Positions 1-56,078 of a DNA stretch of 64,000 nucleotides are shown here, one piece after another (the stretch's first letter is position 1; the number at the start of each line of letters is the position of its first letter). The stretch comes from Escherichia coli (GTDB lineage Bacteria; Pseudomonadota; Gammaproteobacteria; Enterobacterales; Enterobacteriaceae), in NCBI RefSeq assembly GCF_041248615.1, contig NZ_CP158426.1, one strand, 5' to 3'. Made by a program: the position numbers and the translations under genes. The notes beneath the pieces were generated by a model that saw only the letters and a list, made by a program, of their open reading frames with translations, was not told where the DNA came from and searched no databases.

Positions 1-313
1 GCATGGCTATGGATTGATAAATGATATCAAAACGTATCAGCTAGTTTCCACGGTTAGAGAAGATGGCTATTATACTTCAGAAACGGAACAACAGCGTTCC
101 GTTTCTGACGGACTGATTCTTCCGTAAATTCAGGTGTAAATCGTGGTGTGCCCATACGCTCCTCCTATGCTCAAACTATAGGGCAGGATCGTCTACCGGG
201 GTGGGGTCAGTCCACCAATGACTGAGAGGTGTCTGTTAAACCCGTGGCGATTCAGACATTACTCTTCCTATGTACACTGGAGTAGATTGAATAATCATAT
301 AATAATCAATCGG

Positions 314-342
314 TTGAAATCATTTAGGGCTTTTGTATTAAT
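314..342 (+). promoter_or_regulatory. candidate sigma70 promoter of the four-gene operon
   Basis: TTGAAA at 314-319, a 17-nt spacer, then TG-n-ATTAAT (extended -10) at 334-342. It lies about 50 nt upstream of the ATG at 390. Pattern match only. Confidence 0.4.
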
Positions 343-389
343 AGTATTGAGATGGTTTGGTCATGGTTCCAGTTCATAAGGAAATAGTT

Positions 390-1442
390 ATGGGAATTAG
401 TGTTCGAGTCTTGCAAGCAAATCATGGTGATTGTTTCTTAGTTAGTTATAAGAGCTCAGATAGTGTTTACAACTTGCTAATTGATGGTGGTAATAGCGCC
501 ACATTTATGTTTGGGGCTCAAGGGCGCTACAGTGGTGAGCTTAAATGTGTACTCGATGATTTGAAAAAAGAAGGTCAGAAAATTGACTTGGTTATCTTAA
601 CCCATATAGATGATGATCATATCGGTGGTTTGCTTAGGGCTTTTGAAACACCAGGTTATCTATGCCAAATGGCTTCTTCTATCTGGTTTAATTCTTCAAG
701 ATTTATCACCAAACATTTTAAGGTTGATGAAATTTCAGACAATGATGTCTGTCTTCAAAGTAACTCAACGCAGACAAGTGCTAGGCAAGGGAAGAAACTG
801 GAAAACTTACTTGATGAAATCAATTGCGAACGGCAACCCATAGTTATTGCGGGGCAGAAGTTTACAAGGGGTCCGTTCACATTCACGATCTTATCCCCTG
901 AAGAAGATAATCTACGTAGCCTTCTTCATAAGTGGCCAGATGAGCCAGATCCGGTTACGACATCCGGTGCTTCAAGGGATTATGGAATGAAATTTGAGGA
1001 TATTTTGTCTAATGATAAATTCCAGAGTGATCAATCTGTTTATAATGGTAGCTCAATTGCTTTCATCCTTGAAGCTGATGGTAAGGCTATGCTCTTTTTG
1101 GGCGATTCACATGATGAAAATATTGTCCGTAATTTACGATCTCTTGGTTTTAATGAAGGTAACAAGCTCAAACTCGACCTCGTGAAAATTTCTCATCATG
1201 GTAGCCAGTATAATACTAGCCCTGAATTTTTGTCGCTCATAGATGCGCAAAACTTCATTATATCCACTAATGGGAGTAAGCACGGACTTCCTGATAAGAG
1301 AACTATTGCACGGATTTTATCTTCAGGAGAAGGCAAAATCGGCTTCAATTATTCGCACATTATCCAGGAGATGCTTCACGAAAATGAGGTTCCATTGTAC
1401 TCTTCTCGCCTGGTAGCATTAAATGGAGAAATTAGGCTATAA
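390..1442 (+). CDS. metallo-beta-lactamase fold hydrolase, ComEC/Rec2-type (putative nuclease effector)
   Basis: Motifs seen: N-terminal HGDCFLV, LTHIDDDHIGG (an HxDxDH variant of HxHxDH), KISHHGSQYNTS, and STNGSKHGLP. These are typical of the ComEC MBL domain. AAGGA lies 7 nt upstream of the ATG at 390; the tracked ORF starts at TTG 357. Confidence 0.8.
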   Translation: MGISVRVLQANHGDCFLVSYKSSDSVYNLLIDGGNSATFMFGAQGRYSGELKCVLDDLKKEGQKIDLVILTHIDDDHIGGLLRAFETPGYLCQMASSIWFNSSRFITKHFKVDEISDNDVCLQSNSTQTSARQGKKLENLLDEINCERQPIVIAGQKFTRGPFTFTILSPEEDNLRSLLHKWPDEPDPVTTSGASRDYGMKFEDILSNDKFQSDQSVYNGSSIAFILEADGKAMLFLGDSHDENIVRNLRSLGFNEGNKLKLDLVKISHHGSQYNTSPEFLSLIDAQNFIISTNGSKHGLPDKRTIARILSSGEGKIGFNYSHIIQEMLHENEVPLYSSRLVALNGEIRL

Positions 1443-1443
1443 A

Positions 1444-2727
1444 ATGACCGCTTCAAATTTGATGGCTTCTAACGCAGTGATCGTGAACGAGGGCAGTGGT
1501 GTTCTTGTTAATGCGATGACTCAAGATTATTCATACGTACTCACAGCAAAACATGTGTTAGCGAAATCAGGTAGTCAAAATATCGTTACTAATCAATATG
1601 GTAACAGTCTTAGAGTGCTTGATGTATTGGTGGGTCAGGAAGAGCATTGCGACTGTGCTGTAATCAAAATTGAATATGTACCAACTGTTGCTCAGCAGTC
1701 CTTCCCTGCAATAGCATTACCCAATTCGGCTTTGCTAAAGTTTGTTGGTTTTCCGGGAACCGAGAGACTAAGCGCTACCCCGCTGAAAATCTATGATGGG
1801 CATGTAACAGATGTAAGGGAGGGGCTGATTAGCTTCACGATAGAAGGCAGTCCCTCAAAAACCGCAATCGATGGAATGTCTGGCGGTGGAATGTATTACA
1901 TAGTTAATGAACATCCCCTCCTTGTTGGTGTAGAATTTGGGATGGACAGTATTCGTCAAGATCTACAATATGGACGTATACAATGTAAAAGTTTAATTGT
2001 TTTTGAAGAGATAATTAATTTAAACAGTGCTGCTCCAATGGTTCCCGCTTATTTGGAGTGTTTTTCACGCTTAAAAGAATATATCTTCGATTTTAATGTT
2101 GTTGATAAAAATAGAGTTCTGAATCTGAAAAACGCATTAAATATTTTTGCAGATGAACTTATAGACAAAGGTATGCCACCACCATTTGAATTAATGTCCA
2201 AATACAAAACTGATTTGTTAGTAGGTCCATATCAAGTTGACGATGTTAAAAATAAAGAATTATGGGTTGCATATTTTGAATTTCTGATAATTTGCGCAAT
2301 TCTTGATAATGTAAGTATTGCCAATAGTTCTTATATAGAAAGTTTAGAGCGGCGTAGGAGAATTCTTTATACTCCGGATGGAAGTAATTGGGTCGGAAAG
2401 CTTGATGTAATCTTAAAAGTTGCTCGAAAGTTATTAGATAAAGATGGCATAGTAATTGTGGCATCTCCAGAAAATGGAGCCGAATTATTACCGGATGATT
2501 TTGAAGTCGATAGGGTTATAAGGAATATTGCGCGAATCGCTAATTCAGGTCCACTTGCTCCTATCGATCAAGTTGAAAAAGAGATGTATAAGAGTTTTGT
2601 ATTAACGCATCTTGAAGGGCTGAGAAAAAAATGTGTTATAAACAAAGAGAGAATGTATGCAGAAGTTGAAGCTGGCTTAGACCAACTTCAGACGTTTAAG
2701 GAAAGCTTTAATGAATTTATTAAATAA
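1444..2727 (+). CDS. trypsin-like (S1/Trypsin_2-type) serine peptidase with a ~230-aa non-catalytic C-terminal domain
   Basis: Catalytic triad context: TAKHV (His), CDCAVIKI (Asp), DGMSGGG (Ser). The start is ambiguous (ATG 1423 or ATG 1444). The gene abuts or overlaps the upstream stop and overlaps the next gene by 17 nt. Confidence 0.75.
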   Translation: MTASNLMASNAVIVNEGSGVLVNAMTQDYSYVLTAKHVLAKSGSQNIVTNQYGNSLRVLDVLVGQEEHCDCAVIKIEYVPTVAQQSFPAIALPNSALLKFVGFPGTERLSATPLKIYDGHVTDVREGLISFTIEGSPSKTAIDGMSGGGMYYIVNEHPLLVGVEFGMDSIRQDLQYGRIQCKSLIVFEEIINLNSAAPMVPAYLECFSRLKEYIFDFNVVDKNRVLNLKNALNIFADELIDKGMPPPFELMSKYKTDLLVGPYQVDDVKNKELWVAYFEFLIICAILDNVSIANSSYIESLERRRRILYTPDGSNWVGKLDVILKVARKLLDKDGIVIVASPENGAELLPDDFEVDRVIRNIARIANSGPLAPIDQVEKEMYKSFVLTHLEGLRKKCVINKERMYAEVEAGLDQLQTFKESFNEFIK

Positions 2728-3262
2728 AGAATTTGATTTGGAATTTCTTAAATCTAGATTTTCTGATGCAGATTTCTATTTTTTTGTTTCTAATGATGAC
2801 TCATCTTATATTTCATGCGTAGCATGCTATTGTGAGAGCGCTAATTACGTGGTTGCGAATTGGACAGCGATTCAGAATTATTTATCTGCTTACTACCAAC
2901 CGAAGGATGAATTAGCTCTTTGGAATATATATTTAGTTTTCTTTTGTTCCGAAAAATTACCGATTTGGGATAAGTACCTTATAGATAATGATAAGTATTC
3001 TGTCAGAAAATTAATTATTGACGGGTTAACTACTCTGCCAAGTATTTCCGAAACTGTAACTTTTCTGAACAATCATCTGCTAGGCGCAGACCTAGAATTA
3101 ACTGAAATAGAGGAGAAGAAGGAGATAGAGTTATCATTAATTGAGTATATAAGTGGAACTCCTTTAGATTCAAAGGTTGAGTCGAGAGATGAGCGTATGA
3201 GCAGAATTGATAAAATTATTAATCTAGTGAGTTCAAATAAAAATGAAAATAAAAAAAGTTGA
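2711..3262 (+). CDS. small hypothetical protein, possibly the middle or adaptor component of the ATPase system
   Basis: 183-aa ORF overlapping both neighbours (17 nt and 20 nt), with an acidic, coiled C-terminus. No motif recognised by eye. Confidence 0.6.
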   Translation: MNLLNKEFDLEFLKSRFSDADFYFFVSNDDSSYISCVACYCESANYVVANWTAIQNYLSAYYQPKDELALWNIYLVFFCSEKLPIWDKYLIDNDKYSVRKLIIDGLTTLPSISETVTFLNNHLLGADLELTEIEEKKEIELSLIEYISGTPLDSKVESRDERMSRIDKIINLVSSNKNENKKS

Positions 3263-6200
3263 AATAGAAGGCTTTCGAGCATACAGATTCAAGGAAGATG
3301 GTACTTTCGATTTTACAAATAAAGATGATACGCCATCCAATTTTGTAGCGATCTATGCACCCAATGGCTTTGGAAAAAGTTCATTCTATGATGCGGTTGA
3401 ATGGGCTATTACTCATAATTTAGATAGATTTGCGGGTGAATATAATAAAAAAAATTATGAGCAAGCTGCCAGGAGCACGAAAGAGGACGGTGTTGCACAA
3501 AAAATACTACGTAATAAAGATGTACCAGACAATATTCCTACTCGTGTAACAGTTTTCACTACTTTACCAACTCCATTCGAACAAAGTTTAGGAACAGTTC
3601 GTTCTGATTCTAGAGATATAAGAATCGGCGAGAATAAAAATAAAATCAATGGCTATTTTAGAAAAGTGGTTCTTAGTCAAGATGAAATAGACCGTTTTTT
3701 AAAAGAAGCAAAGCCGCAAGATCGTTATAAGATGTTTATGGAGAGTTTTGGAGGTGAATGGGAAAAGGCGAGACAAGAGCTAACTATACTATTGAATGAC
3801 AATAAGGCGGTTTTGTTAAATCTCGAAAAAAACAAAAATGAACTTCAGGAACAACTAGATCAGCCTGTTGATGCGTCAACATTCATACAATTTAATAAAA
3901 TAGCATCTGAACTTGTAGCAGAAGGTGAAAGTTTACCATTAGTAGATGAAACAACTATAGTTAATACACAGCATGAGCTTTTGGAAAAAATAATCACAAG
4001 AAGTCACGAAATAAATTTTTCCTTAAACAAGAAAAAAATATTGAGAGATTCGATTTCTGAGTATATTTTAAAATTTCCTGATATCAGTTTTCGTACAACC
4101 CAGATTATCGAGAAAAAGAATAGACTAGAAAAAATAAATAAAGGGATAGAAGATGTCGGTCGTTATAAGACATTTCAGTCTACTCTTGAAAAACTGACTA
4201 TCGAAAAGAAAAAGATAAGTCAGAGCTTAAATTTTATAGAAGAATTAGATGGTTTATCCCAAGAGTTTTTAAGCTTGGAATTTAACTTGGAATCAGCTCG
4301 AAAGAAACATAGAGAGATTTCATATAATTATGAAAATGAAAAAACTCTCCTTGATAATTTATTCCAAACAAGAAACCAAAATGATGCTGATTTATCTTCA
4401 ATTGACAAGCGATGCTTATCTATACGTTCTACGTTAGAAAACGCTACGGTTACTTATTCTAATATATCTAATATACAAAATAAAATTTTAAATATAGTTT
4501 CTACGCAAACAGAATTAGAGCACAAACTTAATCAAGTTAGATCCGAATACCAAAAAAACAAATCCGAATTAAACAAAGTATCAGATTTAACAATAACCGC
4601 CAAATCATTACTTTCATCAGACTTAAGTCTAATTGATTTATCTTCAGATTTATTAAAAGAACTAAACAACTTATCGCAAGAACTAAATATATTGGTCCTA
4701 CATGATCAATCAATTCATAACACACAAGAATCTCTTTCTGCACAAATGGGAGTTCACGAACGTCTAATTGCATCGGGCCTTGAGTACTTAAGTTTATGGC
4801 CGACTAATATATGTCCTTTATGTCACAAGCCGCATGACTCTGAGTCCTCTCTTAGAGAACAAGTAACAAATACTGACGTAATATCCATGCTTAGTAAAGA
4901 GAATGCAGCTAAGCTCGAGATATCCTCAAAACGGCGGTCAGAGTTAAATGGCAAGATAGAATCCATCGTACAGAAAGCCCTTGAAATTAAAATGAGTAAA
5001 CTTGAGGTATTAAGTAAAAAGGTCAATCAACAAGGAAATGAGATACATCGAGAAGAACAGCACTATACAGCTCTTTTAGCAGAAAAACAGTCTGTCCAAA
5101 ATCAGTTAAACGAGTTGCAGAAGGCTGTAGCTGGACTAACTAAAGATGAATTATTAGCTCGCTTAGATGCTGAACTTAAAGAATTAGAGGCCAAGAAAAA
5201 TGAAGTGATAAAAAACAAGCTGACCTTGACGAAAAATATTAACGTTAAAAGAACGTTGATTACAGAGTTAAGTGGGGCGATCAATTTACTTAATACGCAA
5301 ATTCATGAAATGATGTCATCATCTAACTATTTAAAAACAAAAGCTTACTCTGAAGAAAATGGCTTGTCATCGGAGTTTTTGAAAGAACATTATGATGATA
5401 AACGCCATTTTTACCTTAAAAATATAAATGGACTCAATTTTGAGATTAATAATATTACCAGCCAATTAAATGATCTTCAGAAAGCTATGATAGCCGATGA
5501 AATGTGGCTGGATTATGAAGAAATGATTTCTGAAAAAGAGAATTTCGAGGATTATATTTCTAAATCAGAAGCGGTTTTACAATCTTATTCATCATTATTA
5601 AAGCAGCATTTTGAACTACCAAAATATGAATCTTTAGTTGAATTGAAAGATTTCCTGATAAGCTCACTTGATAAAGAAACTAGGCTTTATAATGGTCTAG
5701 AGGAACGGCTTGGAAAATATAATTTATTATCAGAACTTTTGAAAACAGCAGAGTCGTTTGTAAAAAGTATTAAGTTGCAGAATGATATTAATGAAACCTT
5801 AGGTCTTATAGAAATAAGAAAAGAAGTTGATTTAGCTCTGACTAAGGAACGAAATCAAGTAATAGAGGAACTTAGAAACTTGATAAAATCTTTCTTTTAT
5901 GAGGAACTCATTAATTCTATTTATAAGAGAATAGATCCACATCCATCACTTAAGAAAGTGGTGTTTCGCCCAGATTTTGACTCATCAGATAAACCTGGTC
6001 TTAATATAGTTGTCAGTGATGAAAAAGGTGATATGGTATCTCCAATATTATTCTTTAGTGCAGCGCAATTAAATATTCTAAGCCTTAGTGTCTTTTTAGC
6101 AAGTGCTTTGCATGCAAAAGATGATAATGGAAATGTAATTGATGTGATTATGATTGATGATCCAATTCAATCAATGGATTCAATTAATATCCTATCCACA

Positions 6201-6380
6201 ATTGATCTTCTTAGAAGTATTACCGTTAGATTCAACAAACAAATAATAATATCAACACATGACGACAATTTCTTTGGCTTGCTCCAACGTAAAATCCCTT
6301 CGGAAATATTGGGTGCCAAGTTTCTTAAATTGGAGAAATTTGGGGTTGTAGTGCCTGTTGATGATTTAAATAATACATGA
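3243..6380 (+). CDS. Rad50/SbcC/SMC-like ABC ATPase with a long coiled-coil insert and a central CxxC hook-like motif
   Basis: N-terminal beta-strand plus Walker A (IEGFRAY...YAPNGFGKSSFYDAVEWA). Q-loop-like LSQDE. About 700 aa of E/K/L/N-rich coiled coil. CPLC at residues 524-527 of 1045. C-terminal signature-like FFSAAQLNILSLS, Walker B VIMIDDP, D-loop SMD, H-loop ISTHD. Confidence 0.85.
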   Translation: MKIKKVEIEGFRAYRFKEDGTFDFTNKDDTPSNFVAIYAPNGFGKSSFYDAVEWAITHNLDRFAGEYNKKNYEQAARSTKEDGVAQKILRNKDVPDNIPTRVTVFTTLPTPFEQSLGTVRSDSRDIRIGENKNKINGYFRKVVLSQDEIDRFLKEAKPQDRYKMFMESFGGEWEKARQELTILLNDNKAVLLNLEKNKNELQEQLDQPVDASTFIQFNKIASELVAEGESLPLVDETTIVNTQHELLEKIITRSHEINFSLNKKKILRDSISEYILKFPDISFRTTQIIEKKNRLEKINKGIEDVGRYKTFQSTLEKLTIEKKKISQSLNFIEELDGLSQEFLSLEFNLESARKKHREISYNYENEKTLLDNLFQTRNQNDADLSSIDKRCLSIRSTLENATVTYSNISNIQNKILNIVSTQTELEHKLNQVRSEYQKNKSELNKVSDLTITAKSLLSSDLSLIDLSSDLLKELNNLSQELNILVLHDQSIHNTQESLSAQMGVHERLIASGLEYLSLWPTNICPLCHKPHDSESSLREQVTNTDVISMLSKENAAKLEISSKRRSELNGKIESIVQKALEIKMSKLEVLSKKVNQQGNEIHREEQHYTALLAEKQSVQNQLNELQKAVAGLTKDELLARLDAELKELEAKKNEVIKNKLTLTKNINVKRTLITELSGAINLLNTQIHEMMSSSNYLKTKAYSEENGLSSEFLKEHYDDKRHFYLKNINGLNFEINNITSQLNDLQKAMIADEMWLDYEEMISEKENFEDYISKSEAVLQSYSSLLKQHFELPKYESLVELKDFLISSLDKETRLYNGLEERLGKYNLLSELLKTAESFVKSIKLQNDINETLGLIEIRKEVDLALTKERNQVIEELRNLIKSFFYEELINSIYKRIDPHPSLKKVVFRPDFDSSDKPGLNIVVSDEKGDMVSPILFFSAAQLNILSLSVFLASALHAKDDNGNVIDVIMIDDPIQSMDSINILSTIDLLRSITVRFNKQIIISTHDDNFFGLLQRKIPSEILGAKFLKLEKFGVVVPVDDLNNT

Positions 6381-6404
6381 TTTATTTAGTGTGTTAACCA
6401 TAAA

Positions 6405-6440
6405 ATAAGAACTGGGCCAGTGACGACCCAGTTCTTATTT
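6405..6440 (+). terminator. hairpin terminator after the ATPase gene
   Basis: Perfect 12-bp stem ATAAGAACTGGG/CCCAGTTCTTAT (6405-6416 and 6427-6438) with a 10-nt loop. It lies 25 nt after the stop codon, and the T-tract is weak. Confidence 0.55.
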
Positions 6441-6544
6441 ATAGGGGAACCTATTTTTATCGCAATAAATTAAGAGCGAAGATATGGTGAAAATTGTTAA
6501 AATATGAATTTTTTTAATTTTTTATCTAAAGCCCCTGTTTTCAT

Positions 6545-6840
6545 TATCGTATAAATCAATCTGGACGATTTGTTCTTCAGGTGCAAGGGTATCCGCAAAC
6601 TAGCGCAGGCTATCACCGCCTATAAGCTCCAGAATATGATCAAGTCCATGCCCTCCTGACAACCCAATCGCCTGTAATGACCATTCAGGAATGATTTGCT
6701 CTTTTGATGACTCAACCACAAATGTATCGAGCTCAGTCTTTGCTTAGAGCAGAATTTGAGCCCAAGACTTCCACTCGTATCATCGTAGGTCAGCGTTTCT
6801 CAGAAAATAACCCATGTAACCACGGCATCCGTCTCCGAAT
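6545..6840 (-). pseudogene. degraded gene remnant of unknown family
   Basis: My minus-strand translation gives protein-like stretches (KTELDTFVVESSKEQIIPEWSLQAIGLSGGHGLDHILELIGGDSL..LAPEEQIVQIDLYDNEN) broken by in-frame stops. No intact ORF is present. Confidence 0.3.
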
Positions 6841-6995
6841 GTTATCCTAGAAACAATATTGAGGGGGGAATGTAGAATCATAACCTCTGAATTAACGTAG
6901 ATTAAATCATTCGATCTAAATCAGAGCATTCATAGTGATGGTACACTCAGCACCAGACAAAGATCTCTAGGGGTTTGTTCTAATAAACATGGCCC

Positions 6996-7256
6996 TCATT
7001 CCTTCTGGTGAAATTCGGAATCTGATTGCGTAGGATAATTACATCCAGGAATCGGGCTAGCATTACAGCCCCCTAAGGGTGTTGTTTGCAACGGTTCATG
7101 TTTGTCTGAGTAACTATATTCCTGAATGTGTTGCTCCGAATTTACGGATTGCCTTGCAGAAAAGGGCTGTTCTGGCGTTGTGCTTTGAAAGGCGTACACC
7201 TGAGGAGCACAGAGCCACAGGAAGGGCAGTAGGGTGCAGCGGGCGAGTACATTCAT
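6996..7256 (-). CDS. small secreted hypothetical protein
   Basis: 86-aa ORF with GGAGA 6 nt upstream of the ATG. Signal-peptide-like N-terminus ending VYA-FQ. Confidence 0.5.
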   Translation of the reverse strand: MNVLARCTLLPFLWLCAPQVYAFQSTTPEQPFSARQSVNSEQHIQEYSYSDKHEPLQTTPLGGCNASPIPGCNYPTQSDSEFHQKE

Positions 7257-7696
7257 ATATTCTCCAGACAGAATTCATACCAATTATATGATATGCCAGA
7301 TTGACTCAATAAAGCGTTAACGAAGAACGAAAATATAAGACCAGGTATAGAACTCGACATGCCGATAGTCGCCGGGAAATATCGTGGCCAGATTTTTTGT
7401 TAATGCTCATAGTCAGGCAACAAGGGTCGCTGCAGTAATGACTTCTGAACCTTATAACAAATTTCGGCACGACACTTTTATCATCTTTTTCATAATAAAA
7501 CCTCCGTTTTTGTTTTAATCGTCCTCCGGATGTTTCGGACATTGGATGCCCGTAACATCCGGAGGCTGCGGGTGCGGGCGGCAAAGAGCCCGTGAAGATG
7601 CCCGGAATGAATGGCAAACCCCCTCAGGAATGAAGAAAATACGCAATCAATGCTGGGGTGCTTTGTTGATCACTTTTACTGAAGTACTTTTCTATC

Positions 7697-8416
7697 TCAG
7701 AAGTAGGTTGTCCAGAAAGAGGAAACTGGCATCGCCAGTACCAATGCAGGAAGCATACTGGCTACCGGGAAGACCTTGATACCGGAAATACGCAGGCCGG
7801 TCGCCACCATTAGAACGCCACCCACAGCTGAAAAGTCGGCCTGCATGGCAGGCGTGGTCAGGGGCAATATATATATCGCGCTGTAGGCGAGTGCTAACTG
7901 AATGATAAGCTGGGGGAAAGCGACTAATGCCACGGCGTAACCCAGGGTTGTGGCAAAAATGAGGGCGGTCAGCAAATCCAGGAACGCTTTCGCGATAAGG
8001 ATACTCGAGTCCCCGGTCATGCCTTCGTGCATCGCACCAAAAATACCGGTGCCACTGGCACAAAAAAGGACGATGATCGCCACATAGTTTTGTAAAAACT
8101 GCGCCTGTGAGTCTTTGTCTCCGGGATCGCTTTTCACGACGAGCTCCACCAACCCACGGGCTTGTCCGCCCAGGTGGCTTATCCCTTTTTCCAGATAGCA
8201 GAGCTCGCCCACCAGTGTGCCGAGAAGGACCGATAGAACCATGACGGGCATATGGCTGACACTTGTCACAAGGACGATCCCCATACACAGGGAGGCAGCA
8301 CCAAAAATGAGCGGCATTGAGGTACGTAACCTTTCAGGTAGACGTGAGCTAATGATGGCTCCTGCCATCCCGCCGATCACGACGGCAGAGCCGTTGAACC
8401 ATGGGCCTGTAATCAT
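7697..8416 (-). CDS. DUF554 (YqgA-like) inner-membrane protein
   Basis: 239-aa polytopic hydrophobic protein with an N-terminus like YqgA-family proteins (GxxxNxxAVxxGGxxG). Its start overlaps the stop of the UbiX-like gene (ATGA), so the two are co-operonic. Confidence 0.75.
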   Translation of the reverse strand: MITGPWFNGSAVVIGGMAGAIISSRLPERLRTSMPLIFGAASLCMGIVLVTSVSHMPVMVLSVLLGTLVGELCYLEKGISHLGGQARGLVELVVKSDPGDKDSQAQFLQNYVAIIVLFCASGTGIFGAMHEGMTGDSSILIAKAFLDLLTALIFATTLGYAVALVAFPQLIIQLALAYSAIYILPLTTPAMQADFSAVGGVLMVATGLRISGIKVFPVASMLPALVLAMPVSSFWTTYF

Positions 8417-12412: not shown

Positions 12413-13357
12413 ATGACTATGTCCCTGCATACCAAGATAAGTGCCCCTAACACGACAGCGGCGACCAGCGTATCCTCGCTGGATCTGTCAGGCTCCTCAA
12501 AAACGAAATGTTCAACAGCCAGAACCGATATTTATCAGACTGTTACCGACAGCATAATTGCGGCGCTGGAAACCGGAGTAAAACCTTGGGTGTGTCCTTG
12601 GCAGCGAGCTCCCGGTATGTCCGGTTTACCGTCCAATTACGCCACTGGTAAGGCTTACAGCGGAATGAATATCATGTTGCTTTGGTGCAGCGCGTCAAAA
12701 CAGGGATTCTGTGATTCACGCTGGATGACCTACAAACAGGCAAAAGCGGTAGGTGGGCAGGTGCGCAAGGGAGAACACGGCACTACCGCGATTTTCTATA
12801 CCACGCTGGAAAAGGAAAATGATAACGGAGAAACTGACTATATTCCTATGCTGAAAGCATTCACTGTGTTTAATGTTGAACAAATTGACGGTTTACTCCT
12901 GAGTGATGATGCCGTTTTTCCGGCAGAGATCTTTGAGCCATTACCACGTGCAGAAGCACTTTTTCGTAGTAGCGGTGCAACCATTATTGAAAAAGGACAG
13001 AATGCTTTTTTTACACCATCAACCGACGAAATTCGCTTACCTGAACGGTATCTTTTTATTGATGCTGCTAATTTCTACGCAACCGGCCTGCATGAGCTCG
13101 TTCACTGGAGTGGGGCAAAAAGTCGGCTGAACCGTGAAATGAAAGGGAAATTTGGCAGCGAGGGGTATGCGTTTGAAGAGTTGATCGCTGAGCTGGGGAG
13201 CGCATTCCTGATGGCGGATCTGGGGATAGTTGGAGAAGTTCTGCATGACAGTTATATCGCTTCCTGGCTTAAAGCACTGAGGAATGATAAACGCTATATT
13301 TTCAAGGCCGCCAGCGCGGCATCGAAAGCACATCGCTATTTGATGGATAAAAGCTGA
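12413..13357 (+). CDS. ardC: ArdC-type antirestriction protein (N-terminal ssDNA-binding domain plus zincin metalloprotease)
   Basis: N-terminal YQTVTDSIIAALETGVKPWVCPW and GMN..LL motifs of the ArdC N-domain. C-terminal HELVHW zinc-metalloprotease motif. 314 aa. Confidence 0.85.
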   Translation: MTMSLHTKISAPNTTAATSVSSLDLSGSSKTKCSTARTDIYQTVTDSIIAALETGVKPWVCPWQRAPGMSGLPSNYATGKAYSGMNIMLLWCSASKQGFCDSRWMTYKQAKAVGGQVRKGEHGTTAIFYTTLEKENDNGETDYIPMLKAFTVFNVEQIDGLLLSDDAVFPAEIFEPLPRAEALFRSSGATIIEKGQNAFFTPSTDEIRLPERYLFIDAANFYATGLHELVHWSGAKSRLNREMKGKFGSEGYAFEELIAELGSAFLMADLGIVGEVLHDSYIASWLKALRNDKRYIFKAASAASKAHRYLMDKS

Positions 13358-13918: not shown

Positions 13919-14200
13919 ACTCAAAGCTCCTGTAATGTTGGAGATTTGAGCATGGTTATCCCTCATGAGCGAGGAACGGACAATGTCCCTTGCGCGATCC
14001 AAGATTGATTTTTCTTATTAAATTAAGCTATGGCTGACCTACGAACGATAGGCAAAATGCTCCTAAAGCTACGGCTTATGACAGTAAAAAACATATTGAT
14101 AAAAATCTGAGCTGGTTTAGAATGCTATAATGGAATAATTATTTATTTTCGGCCTTCAGTTTGATCATTTTTAGAAATCACCCTTTTGAAGGAATCTACA

Positions 14201-14995
14201 ATGGAATCAGAAGAAACGAAAGAAGAGAGTTATCAACAGCGTTCGGAGTTTATCAGAAAAATAATTCAACAGCCTGTTGAGGGTGTCATATCTTCATGCA
14301 CTATACCAAAAAAAATAATTCAATTTTGGGATTCATCCAATACTATCCCTAATGATGTCAGACATTGCATGAAATCATGGCGTATCTTAGAACCTTTTGG
14401 GTATGAGTATTTACTATATGATTTCGTTAGCGCCCAAGAATTTATTAAACATAATTTGGGTGAAACATACAGTGAAGCTTTTGCCAAGTGTACTCATCCT
14501 GCTATGCAATCAGATTATTTCCGATTATGTTATATCTCGGTAAACGGGGGATTTTATGTTGACACTGATGATGTTTATCTGGGTAGTGAGATAAGTAGTT
14601 TTTTCACGGATGATAAGTTAAAAATACAACCTTTATGCTACGATATTTCCACCGATTCTATGATTCCACCAGAAATTTTTACAAAGGAAAATACTTATGA
14701 AGAATCTTGGATTTTTTATTTCAACAACAACCCGTTAATTGCTCCGCCTCATCATGTTATCATTGATAAGGCACTAGAGCAATCCACATACTTACTTAAT
14801 AAATCAAGCTATCCTCTCACAGATATTCAGTCAACAACTGGTCCTGGTAATCTATCTAAATCTATTTTCTCGTGTCGCGAGGAAATAGATTTATTATCCC
14901 AGATTACGGTAGTATCAAACTGGCAAGATATTGCAGAAACTAAGTGGGATTTAGAATACAGAGCTGATTCTAGAAATTGGCGCTTGATGAATTAA
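14201..14995 (+). CDS. DXD-motif glycosyltransferase (Gly_transf_sug / Och1-like sugar-binding region)
   Basis: IPKKIIQFWDS..IP, QSDYFRLCYISVNGGFYVDTDDVY (DxD). AAGGA lies 7 nt upstream of the ATG at 14201. Low GC. Confidence 0.75.
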   Translation: MESEETKEESYQQRSEFIRKIIQQPVEGVISSCTIPKKIIQFWDSSNTIPNDVRHCMKSWRILEPFGYEYLLYDFVSAQEFIKHNLGETYSEAFAKCTHPAMQSDYFRLCYISVNGGFYVDTDDVYLGSEISSFFTDDKLKIQPLCYDISTDSMIPPEIFTKENTYEESWIFYFNNNPLIAPPHHVIIDKALEQSTYLLNKSSYPLTDIQSTTGPGNLSKSIFSCREEIDLLSQITVVSNWQDIAETKWDLEYRADSRNWRLMN

Positions 14996-15010
14996 CATGG
15001 ATTTTTAATA

Positions 15011-17212
15011 ATGAACATTAAAAATAATTTGAAAGGTATTAGCCGTTTTTTTTATTCTTTTTACTTACGCTCTCGGTTACTTCTCCCAGCGCAAAAATCA
15101 TCGACCTTTAATACATTAAATCAGAATGAAGGCGTTATTAGCAGGATTTACGCTATAAACTTAGAACGGGAAGCGATTAGATGGGCAGATTTAAATAAAG
15201 AACTGGGTAAAATACTAGATAAATCTAATAAAAAATTAACGAGCCAATTAACCAGATTCTCTGCTATAAACGCCAAAGAAATGTCAGACATTCTCAATGA
15301 GGAAGAGGTTATTCCTTATTATACTTTAGCAGACCAGTTGTACGTTGACCCTCAACCAAAAATCTTACCCGATAAATTTGATCTCGATGTCCCTATAAAA
15401 ATGAGTAAAGCGGAAATTGCTGTAGCATTATCGCATCTAAATGTTATTAGGCTTGTTGCAGAAGGTTCTGATGCATATGCTTTAGTGCTTGAGGATGACG
15501 TGTATTTTGAAAGAGATTTTGCCAAAACCTTAGATGCTGCTTGGTCTGAAATGATTCAAGCTGACAGATCTTCACCTGGTTTTGATATCTTATATTTGTC
15601 ATTTAAAGAGGTTATGAATGGCGCGAAAAAGAAAATTATTTCGAAAAGCATATTTAAACCAGAGCGAGGGTTATGGTATTTTTCAGGATATGTATTATCT
15701 AAGAAAGGAGCAAATAAAATCCTCTCACTCCTCCCAACTTATGGACCAATTGACTTATGGATAAATCATCAATTTGAGAAACTCGATGTGAGGGCAGTAT
15801 ATAAGTCGATCATTTCTCAGAGGTTGGATTTTAACTCTTCAAATTCCTATTCAATATTACCTACCTTAGTGAAGATTGGTATTATTGACAATGAAAAAGC
15901 TTCCAGTTTTAATGAACTTCCAAATTATTGGCCTGTTTTTGCATTTGGTGTAAGTGGTTCGGGTATTTCTTCTTTGGGTATGGCACTATCAATGCTTGGC
16001 TATAAGTGTTGTAGTGATATTGATAGACTTCCCAATGCAGACTTAAAAAATCTATTAAGTAATTCAGAGCAGAATGAATTCAATGCTTATGTAAATGTTG
16101 GCTGTCTCAGTAAGTATATCGGCATATTAAAAAAACAATATCCAAAAGCAAAATTTATAATTACCACGAGTGAATCAAAAGAAATCGAAGATGTTATTTT
16201 TAATATAATTGAGGAGATCGTTGATACTGACTATGTTGTATTGCATTCAGATGAAAAAAACAAATGGAAGGTTATATGTGAATACCTTCAATGCCCACCA
16301 CCTATTTCAGCGTACCCAGAAATGGCTGACATTATTCCTAGGCAGATTATAGATATCACCAGTGCAGCACAAATCAATAATTCAGAAATTAACATGATAC
16401 ATGACATTTCCCCTTGGATATTAGAAAGAAAGAATTTTTCAGGAAATGGTTTTTTTATAAAAGATAATCCGAAGAGAATTGAAAAAGAGCTTGCTGATTT
16501 CTTCATTAATGATTCACTACAAAATATTAATAATAACTATTGGGAAATTCGCGATGATACTTTCCCTGGAAATCTTGGACTGTTTCGACCTCAAAATGTG
16601 ATTCAAAATGATATTAGTGGTTTAGGTCTTGTAGTTAAGGAGGAACAGTTAGGCGTTAGAGAGTTTAGTGCTGCTGCGATTTCAAGTAGAATGAAGTTCC
16701 TATATGGCCGATTTGAAGTGTCCCTACGAGCGGCAAATGTTGCAGGGATAGTAACCGGCTTCTTTTTACATAGAGATTCGCCTCGTCAAGAAATCGATAT
16801 TGAGTTTGTTGGAAATCGATCTGATCATATGTTGATCAATGTTTTTTATAATCCTGGTGATGAAGGTGCAAAGTTTGATTATGGATATCGTGGTACACCA
16901 ACTCTTATTCCTTTAGGTTTTGATGCTTCTGAAGAGTTTCATGATTACATGATTGAATGGAGTCCTGATGAGATAAAATGGTTTGTGGATGGAGTTATGG
17001 TTTATCGTAGAGGAGTTTGGGGGCCTACACCTATACCTCATTTACCCATGACCCTTCATGCTAACACTTGGCCAACCCGTTCCAAGGAACTGGCGGGACG
17101 TCTCCACACGCGTTCCTTACCCTGTATCACTTATATTAGGAAAATATGTATTGATGCAACAATGGATGTTAATAATCCAAAATTAAATGACCAGACAGTA
17201 GTGGCTGGTTAA
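15011..17212 (+). CDS. three-domain enzyme: GT25-like glycosyltransferase, then a P-loop (sulfotransferase-like) region, then a GH16 domain
   Basis: N-terminal IYAINLERE...EIAVALSH..LVLEDDV resembles the GT25 family. Middle region GVSGSGISSLGMAL is a P-loop-like motif. The C-terminus has the canonical GH16 catalytic motif EIDIEFVG and a ConA-like fold pattern. No signal peptide was seen. Confidence 0.7.
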   Translation: MNIKNNLKGISRFFYSFYLRSRLLLPAQKSSTFNTLNQNEGVISRIYAINLEREAIRWADLNKELGKILDKSNKKLTSQLTRFSAINAKEMSDILNEEEVIPYYTLADQLYVDPQPKILPDKFDLDVPIKMSKAEIAVALSHLNVIRLVAEGSDAYALVLEDDVYFERDFAKTLDAAWSEMIQADRSSPGFDILYLSFKEVMNGAKKKIISKSIFKPERGLWYFSGYVLSKKGANKILSLLPTYGPIDLWINHQFEKLDVRAVYKSIISQRLDFNSSNSYSILPTLVKIGIIDNEKASSFNELPNYWPVFAFGVSGSGISSLGMALSMLGYKCCSDIDRLPNADLKNLLSNSEQNEFNAYVNVGCLSKYIGILKKQYPKAKFIITTSESKEIEDVIFNIIEEIVDTDYVVLHSDEKNKWKVICEYLQCPPPISAYPEMADIIPRQIIDITSAAQINNSEINMIHDISPWILERKNFSGNGFFIKDNPKRIEKELADFFINDSLQNINNNYWEIRDDTFPGNLGLFRPQNVIQNDISGLGLVVKEEQLGVREFSAAAISSRMKFLYGRFEVSLRAANVAGIVTGFFLHRDSPRQEIDIEFVGNRSDHMLINVFYNPGDEGAKFDYGYRGTPTLIPLGFDASEEFHDYMIEWSPDEIKWFVDGVMVYRRGVWGPTPIPHLPMTLHANTWPTRSKELAGRLHTRSLPCITYIRKICIDATMDVNNPKLNDQTVVAG

Positions 17213-21106: not shown

Positions 21107-23032
21107 CTAAAAGTTCAGTAACGAGGGATGATCCTCTTTACCTGCACCTGCACCTGCACCTGCACCTGCACTTGTTGTTGTGTGTTTCTCGTCCGGCTTG
21201 TCAAAAAAGAGATCGGGTTGTGTTGTCGTGATAACTGATGTTGATGACGGTCCGGATGACATTTCTTCCTCGTCAAAATTCAGGGCAATGTTGACTCTTG
21301 CGGCGGTGGCGGCAACAGCGGGCGATACGGCACAGATCGCCAGTTCCCTTTTTTTAACCCTGATGGGAGAAATTAGTGAAGCAGAGGGGAGGGCTTTGGT
21401 GGTGAATATAAAACTGACAAAATCAGGCAGGTTCAGCACCATATTACTGTCGATAAAGAAACGCTCGGCCTGCCTGATGGTGCGTTCACTATCGATAGTC
21501 TCTGTCAGCACCGCATCTGTTTTGGCTTTGCGGACTTCGTCATCGACTAATATGGTGCCTGACATTCTTGCCACCCAGTCAGCGGTATCAGGGTCCATGA
21601 CACGATAAACCAGCTTGAATTTGGCATTCTCCACAACTGCACCCACCACGGCATCGCTTTTCAAATCCGCCGGGCAATCTTTTAAATCGGCAATGGATTG
21701 GTGGTCCATAATAATGTGTACACCTTTATCCCGTGCCGCACCTAAGCCTTCCAGCGCAGGCTTGGATAAATGGTATTTCAGTTCGGAAAGGTAAATAGCA
21801 ATAGGGCGGGGTGTGTGGTTTACCCGATCGCGCCTTTCTGCCAGCTGGTACAGGCGAACCAGCAGCATGCGCTGAGCGGTAATAATTTTGCTGTTGCGCA
21901 TCGAGCCAATCACATAGCAGCAACCACCGTTATCAAATATTGTATTGAGGGAAAATCCTGCCGGTGCATTGATGGCATTGAGTAAGGCCAGCTCCTCAAT
22001 TTTCCCGAAAAAGGCTTTTATCTTATCAGCGATACTTTGGACGTATTCCCCGTTATACACATCCCGAATGGTTGAGGTCGTATTACGGGCGACAAATTGT
22101 GCAGCTATTCGGGCTGCTTTGCGATCGTCAATGCGATAAAAGTCAGACTCTTGTCCTTTCTCTGCCAGACTGAAACCCGCGACAAAAAGTTCTTCCAGTT
22201 CATCAGCGGTGATATCGTTAATCAGGTTTAGCTGGTATGCCTGTTTCCTCAGGTCAATTAGGGCAAAGGATTTCCCTGCATCCTCGCAGGCTTTCCGGTA
22301 AAGGTGTGGGGCCCACTCATCATCTTTGGGGTCCATAACAAATACGCCTTCACCGGCCAAAATACTCTGATAAAGTAATATCCCGGTGGCCACCCCTTTA
22401 CCGGCCCCCGTGGTCCCGATGATATCGGCATGTTGTTTTTGCCAGTCTTTTAACGGCAGGTACATCGGCTGTTTCATTCTGTTCATGCCGATAAAAATAC
22501 CTTTACTCAGGTTAATATAATCCTCCGGGTTATAGTGCAATGTTTCCGGTAGCAGCGATTTCACCGTTCGGACATCAGTACGTAATTCCCTTTCCAGAGT
22601 GGTTTTTCTGACGAACCGACTTTTTACTTTATCGAGTTCAGGTGTTAACACCCTGCGCAGAAGAATATGGAAAACAAAACCGGCTGCGGTAGAGGTAATC
22701 AGTATCAGCCAGGAGAGGACAGTATTGCTGGTGGCTATCTTTATTCGGTATATCCATTGAAATAATTCGTTCACCACGGGCGCTATTGTGCCAAACAAAA
22801 AGCACAGTATGGAAAAAACTATCACCAGCTTTTTCCATAAAGGGGCTTTGAGTCGTTCATCGCTTTTCATCGACGCGAAGAATGGCATGGTCAGCCCTGA
22901 GAATAGCGCCAAAATAGGTTGATGCTGGTGCATAAAAACGAGCAGTCCCAGCATGCCGTCCACTATCGGTGATAGTGAAACGATCAGCTTATTTAACACC
23001 ATAATGCTTCCTTTATCGGCCATTCGCCCCAC
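21107..23032 (-). CDS. mobB: type IV coupling protein (TraD/VirD4/CloDF13 MobB-like T4CP)
   Basis: N-terminal TM segments. Walker A IIGTTGAGKGV, Walker B-like VFVMDPKDDE, and a TraD/TraG C-terminal pattern. 641 aa. Confidence 0.9.
   Translation of the reverse strand: MGRMADKGSIMVLNKLIVSLSPIVDGMLGLLVFMHQHQPILALFSGLTMPFFASMKSDERLKAPLWKKLVIVFSILCFLFGTIAPVVNELFQWIYRIKIATSNTVLSWLILITSTAAGFVFHILLRRVLTPELDKVKSRFVRKTTLERELRTDVRTVKSLLPETLHYNPEDYINLSKGIFIGMNRMKQPMYLPLKDWQKQHADIIGTTGAGKGVATGILLYQSILAGEGVFVMDPKDDEWAPHLYRKACEDAGKSFALIDLRKQAYQLNLINDITADELEELFVAGFSLAEKGQESDFYRIDDRKAARIAAQFVARNTTSTIRDVYNGEYVQSIADKIKAFFGKIEELALLNAINAPAGFSLNTIFDNGGCCYVIGSMRNSKIITAQRMLLVRLYQLAERRDRVNHTPRPIAIYLSELKYHLSKPALEGLGAARDKGVHIIMDHQSIADLKDCPADLKSDAVVGAVVENAKFKLVYRVMDPDTADWVARMSGTILVDDEVRKAKTDAVLTETIDSERTIRQAERFFIDSNMVLNLPDFVSFIFTTKALPSASLISPIRVKKRELAICAVSPAVAATAARVNIALNFDEEEMSSGPSSTSVITTTQPDLFFDKPDEKHTTTSAGAGAGAGAGKEDHPSLLNF
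21140..21170. repeat. in-frame hexanucleotide repeat (ACCTGC)x5 encoding (Ala-Gly)5 in the T4CP C-terminal tail
   Basis: Read directly. It corresponds to SAGAGAGAGAGK, 11 residues before the stop. Confidence 0.9.
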
Positions 23033-48422: not shown

Positions 48423-49694
48423 CTAGCCAGCTTGAAGCGTCGTTTTTCCTCTCCCCAGTATGTAGGGCGGTACATAGGATTTGCGGCAAGTATCCAGATA
48501 ATCCGACCACCACTGCATCATTGCCTTTCTTGCTTCCAGATGCTCTGCTCTGTGAATATATGCCTGGCGTACGGAGTTACGTTCCTGGTGGCTCATTTGC
48601 CGTTCAACAGCATCCTGTGACCATATACTGGATTCCATAAGGGCACTGCATGCCATTGTCCTGAAACCGTGACCACAGATTTCCATTTTCGTATCCCAGC
48701 CCATCAGGCGTAGCGCCTTGTTCACCGTATTTTCACACATGGGTTTATACGGATTATGGTCCCCGGGGAACACGAGTGCATTATCTCCTGAGATATCCTT
48801 AATCTTTTTCAAGATCGCGATCGACTGTTGTGAGAGGGGTACGATATGAGGCCTGCGCATTTTGGCACCACGACCAGAGTAACGCACGCCTTCAATAGCT
48901 TCGCGCGTGGCGGGTATTGTCCAGACCTGGTTTCCGAAATCAATTTCATGCCAGCGGGCAAAACGCAATTCACTCGAGCGAATGAACAGATGCAGTGTTA
49001 GCAGGATGGCAAGGCGAGTGAGTTCACGGCACTGCTGAAAACTCTCAATGCTCTCAAGCAGTTCTGGAAGACGCTCCAGTGGTAGAGCGGGGTAGTGTCG
49101 TTTTACTGGTGGAGCCGTCACTCCGTCAAGGTTTGCTGCCGGATTAAAATCGATTAATCCATGATGCACGGCGTAGCGCATGATATTCCGGAGGTGCTGG
49201 CGTGTACGGGATGCAACTTCCAGGAGACCCTTTTCCTCAATTCCTTTTAATAAAGTGATGAAATGGCGGGGTTTCAGTTCTGAAACTGACATGGTGCCAA
49301 TGACTGGGAAGATATGATTATTCATGCTGGCGAGCAAACGGTCGGCGGTGTTCTCTGACCATTTTTTATTGCTCTTGTGCCATGCAAGTGCAACGTTTCT
49401 AAACACTTTCTTTGGCATGCGAGAACTGCGTTCGGCTGCTCGCTGCTCTGCTGGATTGATGTTCAGTACCAGCATTTTGCGAATACCTTCACGTTGACTA
49501 CGGGCGTCTGAGAGGGAGATGACTGGGTAGGCACCGAGTGCAATACGTGATTCTTTACCCTTAATACGGTACTTGAGATACCAGTGACGTGAACCGCCAG
49601 GTTTGACCAAGAGATACAGACCGTGGGAATCGGAAACTTTAAAGGGTTTATCAGATGGTTTGAGACTGCGGATTTTGGTGTCGGTAAGAGACAT
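48423..49694 (-). CDS. int: P4-type tyrosine integrase
   Basis: N-terminal LTDTKIRSLKPSDKPFKVSDSHGLYLLVKPGGSRHWYLKYR. C-terminal R...H.(F)R...Y catalytic pattern. It lies 161 bp from the tRNA-Asn 3' end. Confidence 0.9.
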   Translation of the reverse strand: MSLTDTKIRSLKPSDKPFKVSDSHGLYLLVKPGGSRHWYLKYRIKGKESRIALGAYPVISLSDARSQREGIRKMLVLNINPAEQRAAERSSRMPKKVFRNVALAWHKSNKKWSENTADRLLASMNNHIFPVIGTMSVSELKPRHFITLLKGIEEKGLLEVASRTRQHLRNIMRYAVHHGLIDFNPAANLDGVTAPPVKRHYPALPLERLPELLESIESFQQCRELTRLAILLTLHLFIRSSELRFARWHEIDFGNQVWTIPATREAIEGVRYSGRGAKMRRPHIVPLSQQSIAILKKIKDISGDNALVFPGDHNPYKPMCENTVNKALRLMGWDTKMEICGHGFRTMACSALMESSIWSQDAVERQMSHQERNSVRQAYIHRAEHLEARKAMMQWWSDYLDTCRKSYVPPYILGRGKTTLQAG

Positions 49695-49855: not shown

Positions 49856-49931
49856 TGGCTCCTCTGACTGGACTCGAACCAGTGACATACGGATTAACAG
49901 TCCGCCGTTCTACCGACTGAACTACAGAGGA
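49856..49931 (-). tRNA. asnT: tRNA-Asn (GUU)
   Basis: The reverse complement reads TCCTCTGTAGTTCAGTCGGTAGAACGGCGGACTGTTAATCCGTATGTCACTGGTTCGAGTCCAGTCAGAGGAGCCA, which is the E. coli tRNA-Asn sequence. The asnT name is inferred from adjacency to mtfA. Confidence 0.95.
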
Positions 49932-50922: not shown

Positions 50923-51012
50923 GGAGAGATGCCGGAGCGGCTGAACGGACCGGTCTCGAAAACCGGAGTGGGGGCAACTCCACCGGGGGTTCAAATCCCC
51001 CTCTCTCCGCCA
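50923..51012 (+). tRNA. serU: tRNA-Ser (CGA)
   Basis: GGAGAGATGCCGGAGCGGCTGAACGGACCGGTCTCGAAAACCGG...GGTTCAAATCCCCCTCTCTCCGCCA. It has a long variable arm and anticodon CGA. Its position next to mtfA matches E. coli serU. Confidence 0.9.
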
Positions 51013-51064
51013 AAATTCAATCACTTACACATCATTAAGTCAGTGACAAAAATCACACTTGGAA

Positions 51065-52090: not shown

Positions 52091-52293
52091 CAGATCGCAC
52101 CAAAATTCGGCTCTACCTCGCGTGGTGGTAAAGTTTTATTGCAGGTAAATAGATCCCGGCTGACAATCGGTTTGCCACTACGATTGGTATAGAACGGAAG
52201 CCCGTTTTCCATTAACCATTTTCGCTGGTGGCTTGCATATTTGCAGCCCGTTAATATTAGCAATTCATCTTCGGTTAAAAATAAGCTGCTCAT
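52090..52293 (-). CDS. excisionase-like small protein (DUF4224-type)
   Basis: 67 aa: LTEDELLILTGCKYASHQRKWLMENGLPF. Its stop abuts the int start. Confidence 0.6.
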   Translation of the reverse strand: MSSLFLTEDELLILTGCKYASHQRKWLMENGLPFYTNRSGKPIVSRDLFTCNKTLPPREVEPNFGAI

Positions 52294-52351
52294 AGCTATA
52301 TCTCATAACCGCCGCTAACTATATACGGTTAGCGGCAATTAGGGTTGAACA

Positions 52352-54793: not shown

Positions 54794-54886
54794 TATTGGT
54801 AAACCTCATCACAGATTTAAGGGTGAACAAATCTCTGCCATTGCTGACATATAAGAATGAAACTGGATATTTATTACGGTGCTGTT

Positions 54887-55078
54887 TTAAAATCCTGCCG
54901 GGATTTCGTTATTATCCTGGTGAATAACTTTATCGACCGGATAACAGTTGCCTGGAATTTTCTGTTCGGTTGCTGCTGCCATACATTCCTGCTTTGTTCT
55001 GTGAACACTGACTGCAATATCAACTGGCCCTCCGGAAACAAGAAAAACCGTCAGAATAAGTGCAAATACTGGATTCAT
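54887..55078 (-). CDS. ydfD: YdfD-like small membrane/lysis protein (DUF1482)
   Basis: 63 aa from MNPVFALILTVFLVSGGPVDIAVSVHRTKQECMAAATEQKIPGNCYPVDKV.... Close to Qin YdfD as I recall it. Its start overlaps the dicB stop. Confidence 0.75.
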   Translation of the reverse strand: MNPVFALILTVFLVSGGPVDIAVSVHRTKQECMAAATEQKIPGNCYPVDKVIHQDNNEIPAGF

Positions 55079-55263: not shown

Positions 55264-55431
55264 TATCGCGCCCTCAACAATGAGTTTTGTGATGCGGTGC
55301 CTGGTGCCTCCAGGTGACGTTAACCAGTTAACAATTAACGCCGGATACAGAGAATCCACCCATAACACTGTTTTTGGTTTTAACTGTTCCGCGTGCGCTT
55401 AGCCGCATTCACCGCATCACAAAATTCACTT

Positions 55432-56049: not shown

Positions 56050-56078
56050 ACTGATTCCTCGCGGTGCTACTTCGCTTA

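Follow-up and report, generated by a model that had tools for sequence, protein, structure and literature searches.

What is the role of two cysteines that stand almost exactly at the middle of a large ATPase of Escherichia coli? The protein, of 1045 amino acids (aa), is encoded by an open reading frame (ORF) at positions 3243-6380 of the plus strand in a stretch of 64,000 nucleotides (nt) of contig NZ_CP158426.1 (assembly GCF_041248615.1), which as a whole is called the window below. An earlier annotation made from the letters alone, here called the sequence-only reading, had proposed that these cysteines have the geometry of a Rad50-type zinc hook at the tip of a long rod joining two halves of an ATP-binding cassette (ABC) head, and that the protein is a sensor of DNA ends or DNA topology. 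Our analysis supported the hook: the Cys pair is invariant in the homologs, the arms on its two sides are matched in length, AlphaFold2 places it in an apex loop, and Rad50 zinc hooks head the fold matches of that apex, with weak E-values. We consider it very probable that the motif C524-P-L-C527 (CPLC) forms the zinc hook of a sensor ATPase, LmuB, which belongs to a Lamassu (ABC-three component, ABC-3C) anti-phage system of the long type and hydrolase-protease kind in an E. coli genomic island.

The translation of lmuB contains three Cys in total, at residues 391, 524 and 527, and its sole CxxC is C524-P525-L526-C527, the putative zinc-hook ligand pair. It is encoded by nt 4812-4823 (plus strand; codons TGTCCTTTATGT) in the residue context LSLWPTNICPLCHKPHDSES, exactly at the position that had been claimed for it. 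With 1045 residues the protein has its arithmetic centre at residue 523, from which the four residues of the motif are 1-4 positions away; this agrees with the near-exact midpoint placement noted before. When three Cys were placed at random in 1045 positions, the probability of any CxxC was 0.0057, and that of a CxxC centred within 3 aa of the midpoint was about 4e-5.

Conservation of the Cys pair was analysed in three sets of homologs. The close set comprised 118 full-length homologs, 41-98% identical to the query LmuB (119 sequences with the query). For the wide set, a profile search of 1.84 billion cluster representatives gave 628 with E values of at most 1e-30, and the best 150 of the 628 were aligned; of these, 142 are full-length proteins of 984-1070 aa that share 23-48% identity with the query (143 sequences with it). 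The genomic set consisted of 58 full-length LmuB ORFs from a genome scan and covered many species, including Gammaproteobacteria and Bacteroidota. The results showed that C524, P525 and C527 are invariant in 119 of 119 close sequences and L526 is nearly so; C391, the Cys outside the hook, is not conserved among them. In all 143 sequences of the wide alignment the aligned column reads CP[LVIT]C, at a relative chain position of 0.488-0.535, and exactly one CxxC is present in 141 of the 142 representatives (two in the other one). A central CP[LVI]C was likewise found in 58 of 58 full-length genomic ORFs. The Cys pair is thus conserved in the homologs, as a functional hook would lead one to expect. 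Between residues 219 and 884 the only columns of the wide alignment that are at least 90% conserved are C524, P525, L526, C527 and L537; judged by this alignment, the hook is the sole fixed feature of the predicted 665-residue rod.

In the close homologs the hook lies in an island of conservation within variable arms. This hook-proximal conserved module spans aa 494-554 (4722..4904, on the plus strand like every other feature of the protein given below), and the residues invariant in it are T494, Q501, G512, C524, P525, C527, H531, L537, S548 and N554. H531 (nt 4833-4835), four positions past the second Cys, was considered as a third zinc ligand (CPLCxxxH) and rejected: it is invariant in the 119 close sequences, but in the wide family the position is Tyr in 70, His in 40 and Phe in 29 sequences. 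Because Tyr, His or Phe stands there in the wider family, H531 is not a metal ligand but an aromatic structural position; an aromatic or imidazole side chain stands there in every case. The hook of E. coli SbcC is followed by a His as well, at the fifth position after it (CPLCGSTSHP). No other conserved Cys, His, Asp or Glu was found near the hook in the wide family alignment. Since each chain offers just two conserved ligands, a tetrahedral zinc site would need a second chain.

The geometry of the arms was then compared with that of a hooked rod. The N-terminal side measures 353 aa, counted between the head anchor G170 and C524, and the C-terminal side 356 aa, counted between C527 and the next head anchor, F884; the corresponding family medians are 357 and 354 aa, so the symmetry of the arms holds for the query and for the family. 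The arm lengths hardly vary (standard deviation 6-8 aa), and their covariation, with a Pearson r of 0.32 and a Spearman coefficient of -0.06, gave no information on antiparallel pairing of the arms. The flanks of about 350 aa rich in E/K/L/N/Q that the sequence-only reading had described are also real, as these five residues account for 49% of the N-terminal and 52% of the C-terminal arm versus 30% of the heads. Prolines are absent from residues 280-519 and 531-792, and three stand at the motif (520, 525 and 530). The description of the flanks as heptad-like was borne out in part: their composition and the AlphaFold2 helices speak for it, but our own heptad score is just modestly higher than that of shuffled sequence, and the label therefore rests mainly on the model and the composition.

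In the AlphaFold2 model built from the full alignment (mean predicted local distance difference test score, pLDDT, 74.6; arms mostly 80-89), residues 171-518 and 534-897 are helical and residues 519-533 form a non-helical loop with a beta-bridge 523/530. The predicted N-terminal (outbound) coiled-coil arm, aa 171-518 (3753..4796), is 89% helical, and the C-terminal (return) arm, aa 534-883 (4842..5891), lies in the helical stretch 534-897, which is 91% helical. An apex fragment (residues 430-625, 196 aa) was modelled with a pLDDT of 91.4 and a predicted template modelling score (pTM) of 0.74. In both AlphaFold2 models the apex loop of the rod, aa 519-533 (4797..4841), which holds the three prolines, lies between a helix at 504-518 and a helix at 534-542. 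The helical arms are interrupted by short breaks, which include 206-211 and 337-338 in the first arm, 706-709 and 836 in the second, and a symmetric pair beside the hook at 500-503 and 543-548, and the coil around the motif is therefore not strictly continuous; of the two properties looked for there, symmetry was found and continuity was found only with these breaks.

Foldseek comparison of the whole model with the PDB gave matches to Smc5/6, condensin, JetC, MukB, Rad50 and the Salmonella LmuB chain 9hqx_B. With the apex fragment, the Rad50 zinc hooks 7zqy, 5gox and 1l8d took ranks 1, 2 and 7 among 350,542 PDB chains, at non-significant E-values of 0.08-0.3 and with large root-mean-square deviations. 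A profile of the family alignment searched against the PDB matched generic coiled coils (tail needle, sigma-1, Smc coil, GCN4 and tropomyosin) and neither LmuB nor Rad50. The best full-length Foldseek matches were hinge-type SMC proteins (Smc, MukB, JetC of Wadjet and Smc5/6), which share the head-rod architecture with LmuB. In such proteins the apex is a globular hinge domain that mediates dimerisation, whereas the apex of LmuB in the AlphaFold2 model is a 15-residue CxxC loop with no hinge; no kleisin or KITE partners are encoded near lmuB. Two helical arms, a 15-residue apex loop bearing the motif, and fold matches to SMC, Rad50 and LmuB proteins together favour the hooked rod linking N- and C-terminal ABC half-heads that had been proposed.

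The two half-heads were identified by their motifs, and in the AlphaFold2 model they are separated by a helical rod of about 710 aa. The N-terminal ABC half-head (aa 1-170, 3243..3752) carries the Walker A motif APNGFGKSS (aa 39-47, nt 3357-3383), in which K45 is invariant in 143 of 143 sequences of the wide alignment, and the Q-loop residue Q146, equally invariant. AlphaFold2 modelled this half-head poorly (pLDDT < 50). It matches the N-terminus of E. coli SbcC by BLASTP (E = 7e-6), and hhalign of the LmuB family against E. coli SbcC aligned residues 1-65 only, at a probability of 90%. The C-terminal ABC half-head (aa 884-1045, 5892..6377) aligns to the C-terminal lobe of Rad50, the best PDB sequence match of LmuB being Thermotoga maritima Rad50 (E = 9.7e-5). 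It contains a signature-like FSAAQ (aa 938-942, nt 6054-6068; S939 and Q942 invariant, A941 present in 142 of 143), a Walker B VIMIDD followed by P974 (aa 968-973, nt 6144-6161; D972, D973 and P974 invariant in the 143), a D-loop SMD (D979 invariant) and an H-loop T-H1006 (H1006 invariant). The catalytic residue of Walker B is normally Glu (PMC10586767). The Asp-Asp of LmuB, together with its SxAQ signature, suggests a head that binds ATP and hydrolyses it slowly. All 143 family members have SxAQ, which the published passages on long Lamassu that we drew on do not mention.

The gene context shows to which system this ATPase belongs. lmuB is the last of four plus-strand genes with successive stop/start overlaps (1423/1442, 2711/2727 and 3243/3262). 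The first, 390..1442, encodes an MBL-fold hydrolase of 350 aa with a ComEC/Rec2-like metallo-beta-lactamase (MBL) domain (Pfam Lactamase_B, E = 3.7e-9; PADLOC LmuA PDLC03854, E = 7.6e-125); its open frame starts with TTG at 357, the called start is 390, and the product is named 'ComEC/Rec2 family competence protein' in RefSeq. The second, lmuA (1423..2727), encodes a protein of 434 aa combining a trypsin-like serine protease (Trypsin_2, E = 8.1e-8) with an ABC-3C C-terminal domain, CTD4 (PF20280, E = 6.1e-52), and matches PADLOC LmuA PDLC03855 (E = 1.2e-122). The third, lmuC (2711..3262), encodes the 183-aa ABC-3C middle component 1 (PF20289 MComp1, E = 9.3e-10; PADLOC LmuC PDLC03873, E = 1.8e-44); its overlap with lmuB is 20 nt, and lmuC lies directly upstream of lmuB in related loci too. 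The SMC/Rad50-like ABC ATPase LmuB itself (3243..6380) matches the curated profile PADLOC LmuB PDLC03865 at E = 1.6e-269, with residues 1-1039 on profile positions 1-1006 of 1007, and eight distant LmuB representatives match the same profile at 1e-189 to 1e-240. On these profile matches the four-gene block is a Lamassu of the hydrolase-protease subtype as named in DefenseFinder/PADLOC. An identical protein is recorded as WP_251004532.1 in E. coli; RefSeq calls the cassette neighbours 'ABC-three component system' proteins and LmuB just 'AAA family ATPase' or 'SMC family ATPase'.

This context points to a Lamassu defence sensor and not to a transporter. The Pfam matches of LmuB (SMC_N, AAA_23 and AAA_13, all under the curated cut-offs) include no transporter families, and the sole ABC-transporter match in the PDB had E = 0.73. 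With the Lamassu context, the split head and the sensing of DNA ends reported for LmuB complexes (10.1101/2025.03.14.643221; passages of PMC12663957), the proposal of a sensor of DNA ends or topology as opposed to a transporter-type ABC protein was upheld.

Haudiquet et al. divided Lamassu into short and long types and argued that they evolved from SbcCD; in their passages on the long type, a single CxxC and a Walker B reading hhhhDD are consistent traits of LmuB, and validation is reported for a long hydrolase-protease system, that of B. cereus B4077 (PMC12663957, which cites Millman et al. 2022). PMC12663957 also attributes the ABC-3C system to Krishnan et al. 2020. The query shares with long LmuB, as these passages describe it, the full-length PDLC03865 match, the MBL, protease-CTD4 and MComp1 partners, the hhhhDD and the single apex CxxC. 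It differs in length, since its clade measures 984-1070 aa (median 1043, 142 representatives) as against about 800 aa for published long LmuB, the arms of which are given as about 200 aa shorter than those of SbcC (same passages). The clade of about 1040 aa may be the upper tail of the published long class, and the PADLOC profile of 1007 positions already includes it. We still file the protein as the long type because the figure of about 800 aa is there a descriptive average and not a defining criterion.

The LmuB proteins of short Lamassu systems (Salmonella enterica LmuACB, 9hqx/9hqu; Bacillus cellulasensis LmuAB; Vibrio cholerae DdmABC) also have an SMC-like ABC head and a coiled coil. In the Salmonella and Bacillus proteins a CxxC hook lies at the distal end as in the query, and 9hqx_B is the chain matched by the query in Foldseek. 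Unlike the query, short LmuB proteins measure about 600-650 aa, with arms about one third as long, and are tightly folded; their Walker B is D[Q/S/T/E] against DD in the query, and the V. cholerae LmuB has no hook (both according to passages of PMC12663957). Their effectors are Cap4-type nucleases, whereas the query system has a protease and an MBL hydrolase. No sequence-level match to a short LmuB was obtained in PDB searches with the LmuB sequence or the family profile.

From these results and by analogy with the systems above, a working model can be outlined. According to the results above, the chain of LmuB leaves the N-terminal ABC half-head as a helical arm of about 350 aa, reverses in the 15-residue proline-rich loop presenting the two Cys, and reaches the C-terminal half-head through a return arm of similar length. 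Two LmuB protomers would be linked at their apices by the hook, in the manner of Rad50/SbcC, to give a rod or ring of about 50 nm per arm. In Bacillus LmuB the zinc-hook motifs of two protomers are juxtaposed by cryo-electron microscopy (10.1101/2025.06.23.660979). Li et al. reported for the short Salmonella system that defence needs the zinc hook of LmuB, and that LmuB and LmuC sequester the effector until DNA is sensed (10.1101/2025.03.14.643221). By analogy with such short complexes, the LmuB dimer together with LmuC would hold the LmuA effector inactive, which in the query system is a trypsin-like protease with CTD4 accompanied by the MBL-fold hydrolase. Phage or plasmid DNA ends bound between the ATP-engaged heads would then release or activate the effector, leading to abortive infection.

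Several points weigh against the identification of CPLC as the zinc hook of such a sensor. The sequence similarity of LmuB to Rad50/SbcC is confined to the heads, and the antiparallel packing of the arms is predicted from the pTM and the fold matches. To our knowledge, no experimental structure of any long Lamassu complex exists. The zinc atom itself is not resolved in the published cryo-electron microscopy maps of short LmuB. The steps of DNA-end sensing and effector activation are drawn from short Lamassu nuclease systems and may not transfer to a protease effector or a 50-nm rod. Finally, the hook is not universally required in the family, because functional short LmuB proteins such as that of V. 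cholerae are described without one in passages of PMC12663957.

It is conceivable, although we think it rather unlikely, that the clade with rods of full SbcC length uses its hook as Rad50 does, either for long-range bridging of two DNA ends or complexes, or with the rod as a ruler, with a conformational change that acts across about 50 nm to switch on the protease and the MBL hydrolase. Such a use might persist since the proteins are 984-1070 aa long, their arms are matched within a few residues and the hook is the sole invariant across 665 aa, in contrast to the compact short complexes.

Another interpretation, which is compatible with a zinc hook, is that the apex serves mainly as a docking platform for LmuA-CTD4 and/or LmuC, with the Cys pair stabilising the platform. 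The module 494-554, of about 60 aa, is indeed far better conserved than the arms in close homologs, and in the short Salmonella and Bacillus systems the LmuA C-terminal domain and LmuC are located at the zinc-hook end of LmuB (10.1101/2025.03.14.643221; 10.1101/2025.06.23.660979). However, the wide family keeps just CPLC and L537, which leaves no extended conserved surface, and in AlphaFold3 models of long Lamassu complexes LmuA and LmuC are found at the heads, in the position that SbcD takes on SbcC (passages of PMC12663957). We regard a mainly docking function as improbable.

It is less probable still that the CxxC acts within one chain, as a redox-active disulfide or as a structural metal site capping the hairpin, and joins no chains. 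CxxC motifs are able to form redox-active disulfides, and AlphaFold2 folds the apex of the monomer confidently without a partner. But LmuB is cytoplasmic, with no signal peptide or transmembrane segment to be seen in its sequence, and no third or fourth conserved ligand is within reach, position 531 being Tyr or Phe in most relatives. The identical CPLC stands at the apex of E. coli SbcC, and the dimers in solved LmuB complexes have their hooks juxtaposed (10.1101/2025.06.23.660979), both of which favour the hook that joins two protomers.

Could LmuB be a paralog of SbcC/Rad50 that acts in DNA repair and not in defence? The likeness is considerable: E. coli SbcC has 1048 aa against 1045 and the same CPLC, at 506-509, and LmuB and SbcC/Rad50 have in common a split ABC head, a pair of arms measuring about 350 aa each, an apex CxxC and a similar N-terminal head, besides the C-terminal lobe aligned to T. 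maritima Rad50 and the Rad50 zinc hooks topping the apex matches. Several database sources label the homologs 'exonuclease SbcC' or 'DNA repair protein'. Against this, no Mre11/SbcD phosphoesterase gene lies alongside lmuB, the neighbours encoding the MBL hydrolase, protease-CTD4 and MComp1, and because the nuclease partner of SbcC/Rad50 is thus missing LmuB was not filed as SbcC/Rad50 proper. The Walker B is Asp-Asp where T. maritima Rad50 has the aligned D-E, and the signature is SxAQ in 143 sequences where E. coli SbcC has SGGE. Apart from the tetrapeptide itself, BLASTP and hhalign detected no sequence similarity between LmuB and SbcC near the hook or along the arms. Unlike SbcC/Rad50, the LmuB cassette is mobile and defence-associated: it is a low-GC block beside an insertion sequence (IS) fragment, it occurs in 9 of 5426 complete E. 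coli genomes, and homologous cassettes adjoin genes for prokaryotic Argonaute (pAgo), a retron-type reverse transcriptase and other defence functions. A role in repair is therefore highly unlikely. That the central CxxC is a chance arrangement of two Cys, for which nothing speaks beyond the small size of the motif, is already refuted, because the motif is conserved, invariant down to 23% identity, and a centred CxxC has the very small random probability given above.

The identification of CPLC as the zinc hook of LmuB is correct rather than new, as a zinc hook in this class of proteins is already described in the literature. Its main value is one of annotation, since the gene labelled AAA or SMC family ATPase in RefSeq encodes the DNA-sensing subunit of a Lamassu that is rare in E. 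coli. A LmuB native to E. coli with arms of SbcC length could be a convenient model for long Lamassu, with C524 and C527 as the obvious targets for mutation.

The cassette differs in base composition from its surroundings, the guanine plus cytosine (GC) content being 34.5% in 357-6380 and 44.9% for the window. At its left edge lies a fragment of an IS3-family element (72..256, no strand assigned), which megablast matched to IS3-family transposase regions of many plasmids at 91-93% identity; transposase remnants are called upstream in locus L002. In a search of a plasmid collection the IS3 fragment was the sole match, and the cassette is chromosomal. E. coli has the cassette in two sequence variants, which share at least 99% and about 90.7% identity with the window. 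The copy in E. coli strain 2018-06-4CC (NZ_AP021893.1 / NZ_AP027889.1 compared with window 300-6400) is 99.9% identical and has an ISApl1 insertion in the region of the protease gene. A scan of positions 1-7700 for promoters and terminators gave counts no better than those of shuffled sequence.

The same four-gene order was found in Shewanella, Acinetobacter, Pseudomonas and related loci from many species with enough upstream sequence. In Shewanella halifaxensis (L004, 9234-15132) the neighbours of the cassette encode a ResIII helicase, a VspR-like protein, a reverse transcriptase and a PRTase-CE protein; in Acinetobacter chengduensis (L005, 10384-15132) they encode a Piwi/pAgo protein, a DpnII-MboI nuclease and an nSTAND3 NTPase. 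These two homologous cassettes are located in defence islands. In a group of Bacteroidales loci (L064-L067 and L071-L073) the tblastn match to LmuB starts at residue 506, just before the hook, and extends from there to the C-terminal end of the protein. These loci keep the MBL and protease genes upstream, and the N-terminal half of their LmuB seems, from the extent of the match, to be much more diverged.

Between lmuB and a DUF554 gene, the spacer 6381-7690 contains two minus-strand ORFs, 6996-7256 (86 aa) and 7306-7617 (103 aa), with no Pfam match; the former is also a called gene in the source assembly. Further to the right, window positions 12413-49931 comprise genes for an ArdC-like anti-restriction protein (12413-13357), a type IV secretion system coupling protein (21107-23032, minus strand), a VirB3/VirB4 fusion (32285-35029, minus strand) and a P4-type integrase (48423-49694, minus strand) adjoining a tRNA-Asn gene (49856-49931, minus strand), and this region looks like an integrative conjugative element. 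A block of 34% GC at 14186-17212 carries two glycosyltransferase genes, one of them encoding a 733-aa fusion of Glyco_transf_25 and a GH16 glycosyl hydrolase. A tRNA-Ser(cga) gene follows at 50923-51012, and beyond it lie the gene for an 813-aa fusion of exonuclease VIII (RecE-like) with an Rv2179c-like 3'-5' exoribonuclease (52352-54793, minus strand) and that for a 444-aa FRG-domain protein (59702-61036, minus strand); the region 50923-61036 may be a prophage or a second island.

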